UHGV virus genome: UHGV-0077431
Source: a virus
Length of the DNA stretch: 41,329 nt
Strand: one strand, 5' to 3'
Position 1 is the stretch's first letter. Each line of letters begins with the position of its first letter. The notes under the pieces are model-generated. The model did no database searches. It was not told where the DNA came from and worked only from the letters and a program-made list of their open reading frames with translations. A program made the position numbers and the translations under genes. This document shows, one piece after another, positions 1-7,007 of this stretch.

Positions 1-27
1 GACTATCACTTATTTAAGTGATATTGG

Positions 28-2442
28 TTGTCTGGAGATTCAGGGGGCCAGTCTAAATTTGGTGTAAGTAGTAATACTGAAATTAAAGGAGGGTATCAGT
101 ACATTGAAATGAATGGTACCGCAGAATACTCAGTATTAAATGACGGTTATCAAATTGTTCAAATGGGTGGCGCGGCAAACCAGACTACCCTCAATAATGG
201 TGTGCTACAGGTTTATGGCGCAGCGAATGATCCCACGATTAAAGGCGGGCGCTTAATCGTTGAAAAAGATGGGATTACCGTCCTTGCCGCTATCGAAAAG
301 GGAGGATTACTGGAGGTTAAAGAGGGGGGATTAGCGATTGCGGTAGATCAGAAAGCAGGCGGTGCTATTAAAGCAAGCACGCGGGTCATGGAGGCATTCG
401 GAACAAACCGTCTCGGTCAGTTCGAAATCAAGAATGGTATTGCTAACAATATGCTGTTGGAAAACGGCGGAAGTTTGCGAGTTGAAGAAAATGACTTCGC
501 TTATAATACTACTGTAGATAGTGGCGGCTTACTGGAGGTTATGGATGGCGGGACTGTAACTGGCGTTGATAAAAAAGCAGGCGGAAAATTAATTGTCTCA
601 ACGAATGTGCTGGAAGTGAGTGGTACAAACAGTAAAGGCCAATTTAGTATAAAAGATGGTGTGTCAAAAAATTATGAACTGGATGATGGTTCCGGGCTCA
701 TTGTTATGGAGGACACGCAGGCCATTGATACTATCCTTGATGAGCATGCCACTATGCAATCGCTGGGAAAGGATACTGGTACGAAAGTGCAGGCAAATGC
801 GGTATATGATCTCGGTCGATCAGACCAGAATGGAAGTATCACGTATTCCTCTAAAGCCATCTCTGAAAATATGGTTATCAACAATGGCCGCGCTAATGTC
901 TGGGCTGGCACAATGGTTAACGTGTCAGTCAGAGGGAATGATGGCATTCTTGAGGTCATGAAGCCGCAAATAAATTATGCACCCGCTATGTTGGTGGGTA
1001 AGGTAGTGGTTTCTGAGGGCGCTTCTTTTAGAACGCATGGTGCCGTGGATACCAGCAAAGCGGACGTTTCGCTCGAAAATAGCGTATGGACCATCATTGC
1101 CGATATCACTACGACGAACCAAAACACCCTCCTCAACTTAGCCAACCTTGCGATGTCTGACGCAAATGTGATTATGATGGATGAGCCAGTGACTCGTTCA
1201 TCAGTGACGGCAAGTGCGGAAAATTTCATTACGTTGACCACCAATACCCTGTCGGGAAACGGCAATTTTTATATGCGTACCGATATGGCTAATCATCAGA
1301 GCGATCAGCTCAACGTCACCGGTCAGGCAACAGGTGATTTCAAAATATTCGTGACGGACACCGGTGCCAGCCCGGCAGCAGGAGATAGCCTTACACTGGT
1401 AACAACGGGCGGCGGTGATGCTGCATTTACGTTGGGCAATGCCGGAGGCGTTGTTGATATCGGTACGTATGAATATACCTTGCTGGATAATGGCAACCAT
1501 AGCTGGAGTCTGGCAGAGAATCGCGCGCAAATTACCCCTTCAACCACTGATGTGCTGAATATGGCGGCCGCACAACCGCTGGTATTTGATGCAGAACTGG
1601 ACACCGTGCGTGAGCGTCTTGGTAGCGTAAAAGGCGTTAGTTACGATACGGCGATGTGGAGTTCGGCAATTAACACCCGCAACAACGTGACCACTGATGC
1701 GGGAGCTGGTTTTGAGCAAACATTGACGGGCCTGACGCTCGGTATCGATAGCCGTTTCTCCCGTGAAGAAAGCAGTACAATTCGCGGCTTGTTCTTTGGT
1801 TACTCTCATTCTGATATTGGTTTTGATCGCGGCGGAAAAGGTAATATCGATAGCTATACCCTGGGGGCTTATGCCGGTTGGGAGCATCAGAACGGTGCCT
1901 ATGTTGATGGGGTGGTGAAAGTTGACCGTTTTGCCAACACCATCCATGGCAAGATGAGTAATGGGGCAACAGCGTTTGGCGATTACAATAGTAACGGCGC
2001 GGGTGCTCATGTTGAGAGCGGGTTCCGTTGGGTTGACGGATTGTGGAGTGTTAGACCCTATCTGGCCTTTACCGGCTTTACCACAGATGGTCAGGACTAC
2101 ACGTTATCAAACGGCATGCGCGCTGATGTGGGAAATACCCGGATATTACGCGCTGAAGTGGGAACGGCGGTAAGCTATCACATGGACCTGCAAAACGGTA
2201 CGACGCTGGAACCCTGGCTGAAAGCCGCCGTGCGTCAGGAATACGCCGATTCTAACCAGGTGAAAGTTAATGACGATGGCAAATTTAATAATGATGTGGC
2301 TGGAACCCGTGGCGTTTATCAGGCTGGGATAAGGTCATCGTTTACCCCGACGTTAAGCGGTCATTTGTCAGTCAGCTATGGCAATGGCGCAGGGGTAGAA
2401 TCGCCGTGGAATACCCAGGCGGGTGTGGTCTGGACGTTCTGA
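28..2442 (+). CDS. Autotransporter adhesin (AIDA-I/Ag43/YejO-like), C-terminal ~800 aa; N-terminal signal peptide region not present in this frame
   Basis: Passenger-type degenerate repeats rich in G/N/T/V; C-terminal beta-barrel-like region ending in aromatic residues (VWTF) before stop at 2440-2442. Frame has a TGA at 19-21 and the track start at 28 is TTG, so the gene is 5'-partial or disrupted. Confidence 0.8.
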   Translation: MSGDSGGQSKFGVSSNTEIKGGYQYIEMNGTAEYSVLNDGYQIVQMGGAANQTTLNNGVLQVYGAANDPTIKGGRLIVEKDGITVLAAIEKGGLLEVKEGGLAIAVDQKAGGAIKASTRVMEAFGTNRLGQFEIKNGIANNMLLENGGSLRVEENDFAYNTTVDSGGLLEVMDGGTVTGVDKKAGGKLIVSTNVLEVSGTNSKGQFSIKDGVSKNYELDDGSGLIVMEDTQAIDTILDEHATMQSLGKDTGTKVQANAVYDLGRSDQNGSITYSSKAISENMVINNGRANVWAGTMVNVSVRGNDGILEVMKPQINYAPAMLVGKVVVSEGASFRTHGAVDTSKADVSLENSVWTIIADITTTNQNTLLNLANLAMSDANVIMMDEPVTRSSVTASAENFITLTTNTLSGNGNFYMRTDMANHQSDQLNVTGQATGDFKIFVTDTGASPAAGDSLTLVTTGGGDAAFTLGNAGGVVDIGTYEYTLLDNGNHSWSLAENRAQITPSTTDVLNMAAAQPLVFDAELDTVRERLGSVKGVSYDTAMWSSAINTRNNVTTDAGAGFEQTLTGLTLGIDSRFSREESSTIRGLFFGYSHSDIGFDRGGKGNIDSYTLGAYAGWEHQNGAYVDGVVKVDRFANTIHGKMSNGATAFGDYNSNGAGAHVESGFRWVDGLWSVRPYLAFTGFTTDGQDYTLSNGMRADVGNTRILRAEVGTAVSYHMDLQNGTTLEPWLKAAVRQEYADSNQVKVNDDGKFNNDVAGTRGVYQAGIRSSFTPTLSGHLSVSYGNGAGVESPWNTQAGVVWTF

Positions 2443-2451
2443 TAACAGAAA

Positions 2452-2485
2452 ATAAACAGGCCGTGATGTGTCGCGGTCTGTTTAT
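2452..2485 (+). terminator. Hairpin downstream of autotransporter stop (about 12 bp stem with one G-U, U-rich 3' side)
   Basis: Inverted repeat ATAAACAGGCCG / CGGTCTGTTTAT immediately 3' of the CDS. Confidence 0.4.
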
Positions 2486-2503
2486 CGAATTAAATGCAGA
2501 TAT

Positions 2504-2534
2504 AAAAAAACCAACCTTTACGGTTGGTTTTCTT
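2504..2534. terminator. Bidirectional intrinsic terminator; on the minus strand it follows the tRNA-Pro 3' end
   Basis: Perfect 10 bp palindrome AAAACCAACC-tttac-GGTTGGTTTT flanked by A-run on one side and T-run on the other. Confidence 0.6.
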
Positions 2535-2543
2535 GGGATTTTT

Positions 2544-2588
2544 GGTCGGCACGAGAGGATTTGAACCTCCGACCCCCGACACCCCATG
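2544..2588 (-). other. 3' 45 nt fragment of a tRNA-Pro gene (anticodon loop to CCA end): att core copy of the prophage (P-core-B' junction)
   Basis: Reverse complement reads CATGGGGTGTCGGGGGTCGGAGGTTCAAATCCTCTCGTGCCGACCA, matching the 3' part of enterobacterial tRNA-Pro(GGG) as I recall it; the 5' half of the tRNA is absent upstream. Confidence 0.75.
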
Positions 2589-2790
2589 TCACTGCGATAA
2601 ATCCGCTGTAACCCTTGTAAATACTGGTGTTGCGACACATTGGACTGTATATGCAAACAGTGCATTTTTTGCAAAATCCGCACTATACACATCAATGGGT
2701 TACAGCTGGTTTTTCCCCATACTTCTTCACACGACCTACGTCTCAATCAACACGAGACTGAAGATTCGTAAACGAATCGACATGAAAGAA

Positions 2791-2810
2791 ATCAACAAAA
2801 TTCTGTTGAT
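2791..2810. promoter_or_regulatory. Inverted repeat ATCAACA-n6-TGTTGAT upstream of the HTH gene (candidate operator)
   Basis: Perfect 7 bp arms; an extra ATCAACA copy at 2747-2753. Confidence 0.3.
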
Positions 2811-2885
2811 TTTCTGTCGGGAGCGTGTTAACTTAAAATGAGACCCAAGAGTAATGGGGGTCTTGGACACACTGGAGATACAACT

Positions 2886-3245
2886 ATGTTAACGCCGTTT
2901 GGTAAGACAGTAAGAAAAATGCGCATAGACCTGGGGCTTACGCTTAAAAGCATGGCTGAGGCTATGGGTATGACCTCGTCTTATCTTTCAGCAATCGAAA
3001 CTGGTAAAAGGGCGGTCACTAAACCCGTGCTTGATAGCATCATTGGCTATCTGAATGCGGATGAAAAACAAAAAGAAAAGCTTATCAGTGCAGCTCGTGA
3101 CTCTCAGCAATCAGTAGAGATCAGCTTGTCAGGTAAGAACGACCATGCTCGTGAAGTCGCAATTGCGTTCGCTCGTAGTTTTGATGAGTTAAATGAAGAA
3201 GACTTCCGGAATTTACGACAGATTTTGAATCGAAAACAGCAGTAG
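2886..3245 (+). CDS. XRE-family helix-turn-helix transcriptional regulator
   Basis: HTH signature (LGLTLKSMAEAMGMTSSYLSAIETGKR); ATG at 2886 has GGAG 9 nt upstream (track ORF starts at 2838). Confidence 0.7.
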   Translation: MLTPFGKTVRKMRIDLGLTLKSMAEAMGMTSSYLSAIETGKRAVTKPVLDSIIGYLNADEKQKEKLISAARDSQQSVEISLSGKNDHAREVAIAFARSFDELNEEDFRNLRQILNRKQQ

Positions 3246-3253
3246 GAGGCATT

Positions 3254-3775
3254 TTGAGCGGACAAGATTATCGTGTACCCCCGCAGAACCGCGAATCAAT
3301 ACGTTCTATCGTCAGATCTCTGCGGAGCACCTTCGGTATTACAGGTCTGATGTTTCCTGTTATGGAGGTGATCGAGTTCGCATTGCCTCAGTTGATCCCA
3401 GATTTTGAACTCCATATCGGTGGGATGAAGGAAATGGGGGAGACGCACGGTCTCACCTACCCACAGGAACATTTATTGATTCTTCGTGAAGACATTTACG
3501 AGGGTGCTTTGAATGGGGTAGGGCGTGACAGGATGACTGCCGCACATGAACTGGGTCATCTTCTCATGCACAGGAACATTGCTTTCGCGCGTTCTGCTCC
3601 AGGGGTAAAAATCCGCCCTTTTGAGAGTAGTGAGTGGCAAGCCAAATGTTTCAGTGGTGAGCTATTAGTACCAGCTATTCATGCCAATGTTCTGAAAGGT
3701 ATGAGTGCTGAAAATGTAGCTGAGGCATGCGGAGTATCATTAGTGGCCGCACGATATCAGTTAGACAAAATGTAA
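3254..3775 (+). CDS. ImmA/IrrE-family (M78) zinc metallopeptidase
   Basis: HEXXH motif (AAHELGHLLMH); AGGAGG 4-5 nt upstream of a TTG start at 3254, directly after the HTH stop. Confidence 0.7.
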   Translation: MSGQDYRVPPQNRESIRSIVRSLRSTFGITGLMFPVMEVIEFALPQLIPDFELHIGGMKEMGETHGLTYPQEHLLILREDIYEGALNGVGRDRMTAAHELGHLLMHRNIAFARSAPGVKIRPFESSEWQAKCFSGELLVPAIHANVLKGMSAENVAEACGVSLVAARYQLDKM

Positions 3776-3933
3776 AAACCCCCTGCTTGGCGCCAACCAA
3801 TGCAAGGGGTCTTAAGGTGATGAATCCGAGAGGCGTCACCACCGTGAACAGCTTCAATAGACAGCCTGAAACTAACACCTTCAGGGAAGATGTTCAAGGG
3901 AAAAATCTCTCTTGGTAAGGAGGTGTTACATGA

Positions 3934-4083
3934 ATGAGTTTGAAATCTATCGCTTCGAAAGCGGCACCAAAAGGGTTCCGTTGGGTTTTCTGCCGTTACC
4001 GCAAGGTACGTGGGAAATCCGCAAAAGTCCTTGATGCTCATGATTATGGGTATGAGGCGTGGGCGTTCTTAGTTCGTTGCTAA
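3934..4083 (+). CDS. Small basic hypothetical protein (49 aa); alternative reading 3930..4034 (34 aa)
   Basis: Consensus SD AAGGAGGT at 3917-3924 followed by two ATGs in different frames; not in ORF track (under 60 aa). Confidence 0.3.
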   Translation: MSLKSIASKAAPKGFRWVFCRYRKVRGKSAKVLDAHDYGYEAWAFLVRC

Positions 4084-4130
4084 GAGAACCACTTAAGGCA
4101 CCTTCGGGTGTCTTATTCAAGACTTTATTC

Positions 4131-4155
4131 AAGGCACCATCAGGTGCCTTTTTCT
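4131..4155 (+). terminator. Intrinsic terminator (AAGGCACC-atca-GGTGCCTT + T-run); weaker related hairpin at 4094-4113
   Basis: Perfect 8 bp stem with T tract on plus strand, abutting the int stop codon. Confidence 0.6.
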
Positions 4156-5335
4156 ATGCCATTTTTATTTCTGCATGCGGTACTTCAACCCATTCAACAT
4201 GATTCTGGGTATAAATTTTTGTCGATTTTGCATCACTATGGGCCATCCTTGCCTGCGGATCGATACCTTGTCTTTCGAAAATATGAGCCGCCAGCGCTCT
4301 AATCTCGTGGAAAGTTGGCCTTTCTTTGATAGGTAATTCTGCCGCTACACCTATCCGGTCCCGCAGCTCTGAAAATGCCCTGCTCAAATAGTCAGGGGCC
4401 ACCTGTGTTGGGTGGTTAACTTCCTTGCTTATCGGATTGCTTCTCTTTTCCAGAAGCCGGTGAACAACATAAGGACTGGCCACATTGTCTCTGCTGTTGT
4501 CGATGATCTCTTTCAGGGCCCTGCCGATCGGAATAGCGACGTGTGAAGCCTCTTTGTGCTGCACTTTTTGCCGGTGAATGTAAAGCGTTCCGAATATGCC
4601 AGCCTCCTCCTGATCGAACCATACACAGCCGCAAACCCCTTCTTGAGGTTCCTTGATCGAGTACCGGATCCGGGAAACTTCCAGGCGCGCTTGCGTAGTT
4701 TGTATGGCAAGGTCCATTGCAGTCTTCAGCCAAGGTTCAGCAGCTGCATGTATGGCCAAGAACTGTTCCAAAGTGAGTCGCCGGCGGACCTTTTTATCGA
4801 CACGCCGCATTTTTTTCCGTGTTGCAGGGTTATCCATCATTAGCGATTCATCAACAGCATAAGAGAATAGCTTTTTCAGGAAGCTAACTTTTCGGTTCTG
4901 AACATTGGCCGACGATTCAGAATGGTAATTTCGTATGTAGGCATTTACGTGCTCAAGCTCAATATCGCATGCGGGTATGTTATTAAAAAATTCTTTAACC
5001 CTGATGGCATCATTATTCCAATCGTCAAGTGTGCTTTTAGACGGCTGCTCATCTTTGATCGCTCTCTCCATAATGCGATCAACATGTTCAGAAAACGGGT
5101 GGGCTTCACCATTCAGCCCTCCCGATTCCCGAATTAATGAATCTATCGATGGTGTATTTTCAGGGCGCATCCTCAGGTTATATTCTCGGGCGATGGCGAT
5201 AGCCATTACTCGATCCGAACCGAGAGTTTTCTTTTTCCCAGTTATAAGCGTGAACTTATACACGCCACGATCTTTATCAAAAAAAAGATAATCAGGAAGG
5301 TGGCGGTATTCTTTTTTTCGTGGCCTTGCTGCCAT
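4154..5335 (-). CDS. int: Tyrosine integrase (lambda Int family)
   Basis: C-terminal catalytic region with H-x-x-R (FHEIRALAAH) and Y (KIYTQ); ATG at 5335 has GAGGG 6 nt upstream (track start at 5341 is TTG). Confidence 0.9.
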   Translation of the reverse strand: MAARPRKKEYRHLPDYLFFDKDRGVYKFTLITGKKKTLGSDRVMAIAIAREYNLRMRPENTPSIDSLIRESGGLNGEAHPFSEHVDRIMERAIKDEQPSKSTLDDWNNDAIRVKEFFNNIPACDIELEHVNAYIRNYHSESSANVQNRKVSFLKKLFSYAVDESLMMDNPATRKKMRRVDKKVRRRLTLEQFLAIHAAAEPWLKTAMDLAIQTTQARLEVSRIRYSIKEPQEGVCGCVWFDQEEAGIFGTLYIHRQKVQHKEASHVAIPIGRALKEIIDNSRDNVASPYVVHRLLEKRSNPISKEVNHPTQVAPDYLSRAFSELRDRIGVAAELPIKERPTFHEIRALAAHIFERQGIDPQARMAHSDAKSTKIYTQNHVEWVEVPHAEIKMA

Positions 5336-5337
5336 GG

Positions 5338-5547
5338 TCAACCCTCAATTATTAACTGACGTACCGCCTGATTAACAATTGAGTCAACTCCCCACTTTTC
5401 GGTTTCATAGACAAAAACTGAACCATCTACAATCCTTCCCATGAGTAATCCGTTTTCGACCCAACGTTTAATTGTACGGTTGTCAGGAATGGAGTCTTTG
5501 GTAAATTCGCGCTTACTCCAGAGACTCGCTTTCATTAGCTTTGCCAT
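5338..5547 (-). CDS. xis: Excisionase (lambda Xis-like)
   Basis: Motifs RTIKRWVENG and DGSVFVYETEKW resemble lambda Xis; ATG at 5547 has AAGGA 4 nt upstream; stop adjoins int start. Confidence 0.7.
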   Translation of the reverse strand: MAKLMKASLWSKREFTKDSIPDNRTIKRWVENGLLMGRIVDGSVFVYETEKWGVDSIVNQAVRQLIIEG

Positions 5548-6166: not shown

Positions 6167-6343
6167 TTAGCTCTCAAATTTCCATGAATGGTTTATTACT
6201 TCAGTGGCATCGCCACGGCAGGGGTTATCTAATTTTTGTCCACCACACTGCCCGTACTCGACGTCTACCCAATCTGATATGTCGCTATCGGTAGCGTGAT
6301 CCGGAACATCAATTTCGATGGTTATGATGATTGTCTTAGGCAT
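6167..6343 (-). CDS. Small acidic hypothetical protein (58 aa)
   Basis: ATG overlaps the stop of the upstream gene (TGATG); not in ORF track. Confidence 0.45.
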   Translation of the reverse strand: MPKTIIITIEIDVPDHATDSDISDWVDVEYGQCGGQKLDNPCRGDATEVINHSWKFES

Positions 6344-6582
6344 CAGGCCTCATCCTCTTTATGGAAATTTACCCATTCAGTGTCCTCAGGTATTCCAGGG
6401 GATAGTAAAGGGTTTGTTGCAGCCAGCATTTCACCGGCTGCACCACTCCGCTGGATTCGGCGAAGCACTTCATAAATCTCGAACATCTCTATTCGTTCAT
6501 CGCCTATGTCCAGCTCACAGGCCAACTTATGGCATTCACCGGCCAGCACCGCTACCTTCTGGAGGAATTCTGATTTAGTCAC
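6343..6582 (-). CDS. Hypothetical protein (79 aa)
   Basis: GTG start at 6582 preceded by AGGAGG at spacing 6 and overlapping the upstream stop (GTGA); track ORF extends to 6687. Confidence 0.5.
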   Translation of the reverse strand: MTKSEFLQKVAVLAGECHKLACELDIGDERIEMFEIYEVLRRIQRSGAAGEMLAATNPLLSPGIPEDTEWVNFHKEDEA

Positions 6583-7007
6583 AGCTTCACCTCCTGTTGT
6601 GGTGCTGCTGAGATCATCGCTGCCCAGCATAACTTGGCCCGATGCGCCGCTTGTTCGCAGCCACTCATTTTCTGATACGCCTCCCACACTTCAGATTTAC
6701 TGAAGAATTCGTCTGGCTCCGACTCGAAGCCTTCGATAACCATCTTCTCCGTCGGCACAATCGGTACCAGTTTCCAACCATCCGGAATCACCGGAGAGTT
6801 GCTGCAGCGCGAATCGGCATTTGAGGGCAAAGAATCTAATGCTGACGCGGGCTGCATGGTGCAGCGCGACTCGGTGTTTTCGGCACCCAGATGCATGGCG
6901 GTGCGGCAGGCGTTCCAGATTTTCTGTGCCAAAAATTTATCCCCGATGTTATGCGCCAGAAGACTGACAATCTGACCAGCCAGACCTTTTGGCATTTCTT
7001 CTGGCAC
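6579..7007 (-). CDS. Hypothetical protein
   Basis: ORF in coupled leftward operon; start is GTG at 7007 or ATG at 6995. Confidence 0.5.
   Translation of the reverse strand: MPEEMPKGLAGQIVSLLAHNIGDKFLAQKIWNACRTAMHLGAENTESRCTMQPASALDSLPSNADSRCSNSPVIPDGWKLVPIVPTEKMVIEGFESEPDEFFSKSEVWEAYQKMSGCEQAAHRAKLCWAAMISAAPQQEVKL

Follow-up and report, generated by a model that had tools for sequence, protein, structure and literature searches.

The integrase-proximal junction of a lambdoid prophage in the 3′ part of proL, next to a yejO gene interrupted by IS2

The DNA analysed here (the window) is a stretch of 41,329 nucleotides from the virus genome UHGV-0077431. Its left side is the narP-yejO-proL-yejM locus, as found by searching positions 1-2900 against 5426 complete E. 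coli genomes, and phage DNA follows from an attachment-site arm and an integrase gene onwards (Table 1). The two sides meet at a piece of the tRNA-Pro(GGG) gene proL. On the minus strand, this piece corresponds to nucleotides 32-77 of the gene and is identical at 46 of 46 positions to the intact 77-nt copy of an empty-site strain. The intact genes used in the alignment were those of loci L002 and L004. It contains the last base of the 5′ strand of the anticodon stem, the anticodon loop, the variable loop, the T arm, the 3′ strand of the acceptor and the CCA. Its 5′ start is located three nucleotides 5′ of the GGG anticodon, which ARAGORN places at position 35 of the gene. A reading made earlier from the letters of the window (the sequence-only reading) had described the 3′ 45 nt of tRNA-Pro; the copy is an exact 3′ part of proL, and its length is 46 nt. 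This 3′ end of tRNA-Pro is matched a single time in the window; 100 shuffles gave an expectation of zero. No complete tRNA was detected by ARAGORN in the whole 41.3 kb, and the Rfam search yielded nothing above threshold, its one tRNA signal being weak and partial. The tRNA-like piece is a non-functional, dead fragment. A 35-nt match (97%) to the tRNA-Pro 3′ end is also located near the end of the Salmonella Gifsy-2 record NC_010393.1 (44300-44334).

Table 1. Features at the left end of the window, with strand and the basis of each assignment
Feature	Position	Strand	Basis
IS2, terminal 55 bp at the end that precedes its transposase gene, truncated by the window edge	1-55	-	Near-identical genomes
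AATTT, one copy of the 5-bp IS2 target-site duplication in yejO	56-60		Comparison with CX21 and ECONIH4
yejO remnant, AIDA-I-type autotransporter, codons 53-846 and stop	58-2442	+	Pfam, RefSeq, alignment
Hairpin just past the yejO stop, probable yejO terminator	2452-2485	+	RNA fold
Native E. coli proL hairpin, predicted terminator	2504-2534	-	RNA fold; identical downstream of intact proL in 2273-PO3
Common core, 46 nt of tRNA and 3-4 trailer T	2539/2540-2588		Four-way att comparison
Displaced proL tRNA-Pro(GGG) 3′ fragment (gene nt 32-77, 46 nt)	2543-2588	-	Exact single match
Phage P′ arm	2589-2725		Collinear with attP of Flotzy, Phi06_2987 S and the CX21 prophage
1.44-kb accessory insert	2726-4166	+	Absent from Flotzy and CX21
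XRE-type HTH gene	2886-3245	+	Pfam HTH_3/HTH_31; PADLOC capH
M78 ImmA/IrrE peptidase gene	3254-3775	+	Pfam Peptidase_M78; PADLOC capP
49-aa ORF, conserved	3934-4083	+	PHROG 33859
Lambda-type tyrosine integrase with N-terminal arm-binding domain	4154-5335	-	Pfam, PHROG 1, PDB
69-aa ORF, excisionase candidate	5338-5547	-	Position only, immediately upstream of int

The proL fragment and yejO are separated by two hairpins. RNA of the minus strand of 2496-2545 folds into a 13-bp hairpin (−16.4 kcal/mol; z = −5.4; equalled by none of 200 shuffles). Its core is CCAACC/GGUUGG, and seven U form a tract after it on the tRNA strand. An 8-nt trailer lies between the fragment and this hairpin on the same strand. 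The hairpin sequence is 100% identical to that found 3′ of intact proL in strain 2273-PO3. On the plus strand, 2507-2531 form a perfect 10-bp stem between an A-run and a T-run. Since stems fold on both strands, the perfect bidirectional terminator proposed by the sequence-only reading is plausible as a prediction; it would favour the tRNA strand, with its 7 U, over the opposite one, which has UUUUCUU. The autotransporter gene is convergent, as had also been proposed, and its ORF stop at 2442 faces the tRNA fragment. A scan of 2300-3000 for consensus terminators and promoters called no site; the proL hairpin was probably missed because the scan extends the stem into the A/T runs. The second hairpin (−21.3 kcal/mol; z = −4.5; equalled by none of 200 shuffles) is identical in empty-site strains and is predicted to be the probable terminator of yejO. 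This hairpin of yejO itself did not appear in the sequence-only reading.

In strain 2273-PO3, the site is unoccupied and comprises yejO, the same terminator, intact proL and yejM. The window is 100% identical to this unoccupied locus up to 2588 and unrelated to it from 2589, and the 3′ part of proL abuts foreign DNA at 2588/2589. The int region was found in three phage records. The attP site is seen in Phi06_2987 S and in Flotzy, whose record is a complete phage genome; it consists of a P arm, TTTT followed by the 46-nt tRNA segment, and a P′ arm. The P′ arm of the free phages is the DNA that follows the junction in the window, and lysogens have the P arm of these phages at their far junction. 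Both parental sites were located, attB as the empty site of 2273-PO3 and attP in Flotzy and Phi06_2987 S. We compared attB (locus L002), the window junction, the far junctions (L004 and L005) and attP (L026 and L027); a core of 49-50 bp is the sole stretch common to attB, attP and both junctions. Judged by their sequences, these are the full four-site set expected of Campbell-type integration. The junction is carried by 52 of the 5426 complete E. coli genomes, and the remainder show the intact gene. The prophage junction of a tRNA-integrating phage, claimed by the sequence-only reading, is borne out: the host side is identical to empty sites, the phage side is the P′ arm, and a lambda-type integrase is located 1.6 kb away. 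The arrangement given for the junction was also right; its label, P-core-B′, should by lambda convention be attL (BOP′) for an int-proximal junction, which concerns naming only. A literature search for proL as a phage attachment site found nothing relevant.

The P′ arm contains CGATAAATCCGCTGTAA at 2595-2611 and a partial inverted copy at 2697-2715, and the P arm contains the repeat CGATAAATCGCCTGTAA (2874-2890 of L027); the repeats form family D2 and pair I1. From their sequences, CGATAAATCCGCTGTAA and CGATAAATCGCCTGTAA are candidate arm-type integrase binding sites. Each att arm has one copy of a 17-nt motif, CGATAAATC(C/G)(G/C)CTGTAA, and the P′ arm has an incomplete inverted copy as well.

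The integrase matches the lambda Int structures 1Z1B and 5J0N over its full length (E = 2e-14) and PHROG 1 at 3.7e-31. The Pfam family Arm-DNA-bind_1 is matched at 28.1 bits (cut-off 22); the match to Phage_integrase, at 26.9 bits, is marginally under the curated cut-off of 27.1. In the alignment to residues 3-341 of lambda Int, HEIRAL is located opposite HELRSL and the C-terminal His and Tyr are present. The protein thus has the H-x-x-R, His and Tyr motifs and the arm-binding domain of a lambda-type integrase. The 69-aa ORF is kept beside int in all related prophages and in Flotzy. No Xis homology was detected for it in Pfam, PHROG or PDB (its WD40 matches are repeat artefacts); by position only, it is likely to be Xis. 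From 5.6 to 41.3 kb, the window carries a lambdoid regulatory, lysis, head and tail set. The genes past int include an exonuclease, CI/Cro-type regulators, Q, lysis genes, terminase, portal, capsid, tape measure and J.

The genomes of ECONIH4 and SZQ1 carry the same junction. In both, an intact tRNA-Pro is located beside yejM (45.6 and 46.8 kb away, respectively), and the phage supplies the last 46 nt of this far-end proL along with its trailer and terminator. The far end of the prophage studied here is out of sight because the window ends inside the tail gene J, and no second copy of the core was found within the window. By analogy with the arrangement in SZQ1, an intact proL is predicted approximately 6.4 kb past the right edge. 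We infer a second core copy in this prophage from its relatives, since the far end lies outside the window and database genomes are collinear with parts of the window only. An intact tRNA at the other prophage end, as the sequence-only reading expected, is therefore seen in ECONIH4 and SZQ1 and holds for the present prophage by proxy only.

We are highly confident that 2444-2588 is the int-proximal junction of a lambdoid prophage of about 45 kb in the 3′ part of proL, and that yejO was separately inactivated by IS2. In the mechanism we propose, attP brings in proL sequence that spans the anticodon loop through the CCA, together with its own trailer and terminator. A lambda-type Int would exchange strands inside the 49-50-bp core, where the exchange must occur. 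Int would bind core sites around the anticodon loop, and the crossover would most likely fall in the 7-nt anticodon loop (2581-2587), where the identity block has its 5′ boundary. The remainder of the block would serve to rebuild the gene, which fits the general description given in the Islander paper (PMC4383910). The host 5′ part and the phage-borne 3′ part would then make up an intact proL at the far end, beside yejM. The original 3′ 46 nt of the host are left behind here with the native trailer, the native terminator and the convergent yejO. Excision would need Int and probably the 69-aa ORF as Xis, recombining the two direct core copies.

The alternative that survives best is a stranded element: deletion or rearrangement in this genome would have removed its distal end together with the regenerated tRNA, leaving no partner core and no excision. 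Such a loss would sit well with a far end outside the window, with the high mosaicism of the element family, with degraded relatives elsewhere (for example, the one at locus L028) and with a host lineage that carries active IS elements (IS2 in yejO). It is nevertheless very unlikely, as the integrase, lysis, terminase, portal, capsid and tail genes are long open frames up to the window end, the far junction is kept in both complete same-junction genomes inspected, and proL was matched in all 5426 complete E. coli genomes. The partial state of the gene would also fit a 46-nt piece that arose with no phage integration, by decay of a tRNA gene into a pseudogene or by a chance deletion. This has next to no probability, given a breakpoint that falls on the very base where the attP core of free phages ends and neighbouring DNA that is phage P′ arm and then integrase.

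The left edge of the window falls within IS2, where the element interrupts yejO. Position 55 of the window is the exact end of a 1331-bp element that ECONIH4 and 2273-PO3 carry under the annotation 'IS3-like element IS2 family transposase'. The full element at these two loci has the length and termini of IS2, a two-ORF frameshifted transposase and a 5-bp duplication; of this element, the window has no more than the final 55 bp, followed by the AATTT duplication. AATTT is single in the intact yejO of CX21 and flanks the 1331-bp insert on both sides in ECONIH4. The insertion point is after nt 159 of yejO, and the same insertion is found in ECONIH4, 2273-PO3 and other strains. It splits codons 1-52 from the remainder, leaving the remnant without promoter, start codon and N-terminus. 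No uninterrupted yejO with an N-terminal export signal is located in the window; IS2 intervenes. The remnant matches the Pfam families AIDA (6e-49), Pertactin (6e-46) and Autotransporter beta-domain (1.5e-45) and shows the AIDA-I-type architecture of passenger repeats, a pertactin-like domain and a C-terminal beta-barrel. In identical loci, RefSeq annotates 'autotransporter YejO ... missing N-terminus' with a pseudogene flag. The autotransporter gene, which the sequence-only reading took to be possibly disrupted, is indeed so, by IS2.

The same reading had proposed a frameshift in the adhesin gene. The two signs it named were both seen: a TGA at 19-21 stands in register with yejO, and frame 2 is the sole open frame at the left edge (until 65-67). 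The TGA, however, is inside IS2. A frameshift or nonsense mutation near the left edge would explain an in-frame stop and a different frame open there, but it can be dismissed as extremely improbable: the first 55 bases belong to the IS2 terminus, the match to IS-free genomes starts only at base 56, the 5-bp duplication is present, and the remnant aligns with residues 53-846 of intact YejO at 97.2% identity with no gaps and no stops. The IS2 terminus, the AATTT duplication and the gap-free frame from codon 53 thus point to IS insertion as the cause of inactivation, and on sequence comparison yejO is a pseudogene through IS2 and not through a frameshift. In E. coli K-12, yejO is interrupted near its start codon by IS5 (PMC11005336; PMC11677980). 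The two pseudogenes are alike in that the same autotransporter gene was inactivated by an IS near the start codon. They differ in the element and its position, here IS2 (1331 bp, 5-bp duplication) after nt 159, and are independent events.

The accessory insert is located between the P′ arm and int, where Flotzy and CX21 have approximately 17 bp instead. It is bounded by hairpins; a search for a direct repeat flanking it gave only an uninformative 6-mer. The PADLOC profiles capH (4.6e-10) and capP (1.1e-10) match its HTH and M78 genes, respectively; no defence effector is adjacent, and the 49-aa ORF follows. The insert is found in 13 of the 5426 complete E. coli genomes, five times at this junction and eight times in a degraded prophage elsewhere (L028). 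The CapH/CapP-like pair between att and int could be a DNA-damage-sensing switch without a known effector. In ECONIH4, the M78 peptidase gene is annotated with 384 nt (6254-6637 of locus L001), as compared to an ORF of 522 nt in the window and in SZQ1; the shorter gene suggests decay of the insert.

The trailer and terminator carried by the phage form a CCAGCC/GGCTGG hairpin that follows the regenerated proL in lysogens. They are the same as at native Enterobacter proL loci for 39-42 bp past the tRNA end, as compared to 3-4 bp for E. coli (stretches compared: L004, 48130-48173; L005, 49308-49350; L026, 2459-2500; L027, 2958-3000; also L029, L030 and L035). The attP/attB identity amounts to about 85-88 bp in Enterobacter versus 49-50 bp in E. 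coli. Among the Enterobacter loci, those of E. chuandaensis and a MAG are unoccupied and flanked by ordinary chromosomal genes. The E. nematophilus locus has intact proL and no phage P arm within the 239 nt available on the terminator side. The contig of Enterobacter sp. RIT637 carries a true far junction of this phage family. The longer identity with Enterobacter (39-42 bp versus 3-4 bp) and the RIT637 far junction therefore suggest, at the sequence level, an att module derived from Enterobacter. The phage-borne hairpin is located downstream of int in the circular phage form only. By analogy with lambda sib, it might cause int expression to differ before and after integration. Taken jointly, an int/att module from Enterobacter with a sib-like hairpin and, separately, a CapH/CapP-like pair acting as an effector-less damage-sensing switch make up a reading that we regard as unlikely in its entirety.

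Beyond the junction, the element is mosaic. ECONIH4 has 99.6% identity to the window up to 8922 only, after which a contractile-tail virion module follows. The best of the close non-identical contigs, NCTC contig L023 (99.85%), extends to 10736 only. SZQ1 is collinear in gene order over its 50-kb locus, with DNA identities of 92.5% to window 20000-41329 and 98.5% to 56-2900. The structural genes of the window are 98.5-99.8% identical to those of prophages at other sites with other integrases; in strain 97.3, the matching virion module is located at dusA with a different integrase. Mosaicism is extreme over 8922-41329, the same int/att module being joined to a contractile tail in ECONIH4 and to a lambda-like tail in the window and SZQ1.

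The closest known systems are Flotzy (PP925827), Eeyore (PP925821), Phi06_2987 S (KM389287) and the proL prophages of ECONIH4, SZQ1 and CX21, with int at 97-99.6% DNA identity. The P′ arm and the 49-50-bp proL core of those phages and proL prophages are the same as in the window. Phi06_2987 S shares the HTH/M78 insert with the window; Flotzy, Eeyore and CX21, in contrast, lack the 1.44-kb insert, and the remaining genome is mosaic. As in lambda, a tyrosine recombinase with an arm-binding domain is encoded beside attP by an int gene pointing towards attP, a small ORF occupies the xis position, and the gene order runs from CI/Cro through Q, lysis and terminase to J. The attB of lambda lies between gal and bio and has a 15-bp core. 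Unlike in lambda, attB here falls within a tRNA gene that the phage has to restore, hence the core of 49-50 bp.

Classic tRNA-gene integrators include P22 (at thrW) and P4 (at leuX). As in these phages and in the elements catalogued in Islander, the tRNA gene is split and its 3′ part is supplied by the element; nothing is different in kind. Williams is said to have described, in 2002, an anticodon-loop sublocation class of tRNA-targeting integrases, and the identity block starting at the anticodon loop would correspond to that class. According to the Islander paper, tyrosine integrases split tRNA genes that the island sequence restores, and the regenerated gene and the displaced fragment are located at the two ends (PMC4383910). 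The tyrosine integrase gene is likewise within the element here, and it adjoins the displaced fragment, not the regenerated gene.

The junction is a textbook feature of a known kind, already present in annotated genomes and phage records, and brings no new principle for site-specific recombination. Its value is mainly for annotation. The prophage boundary is set to the base (2588/2589), and a location is predicted for the other boundary and for the functional proL. The yejO pseudogene is explained by IS2, and not by a sequencing error or a frameshift.
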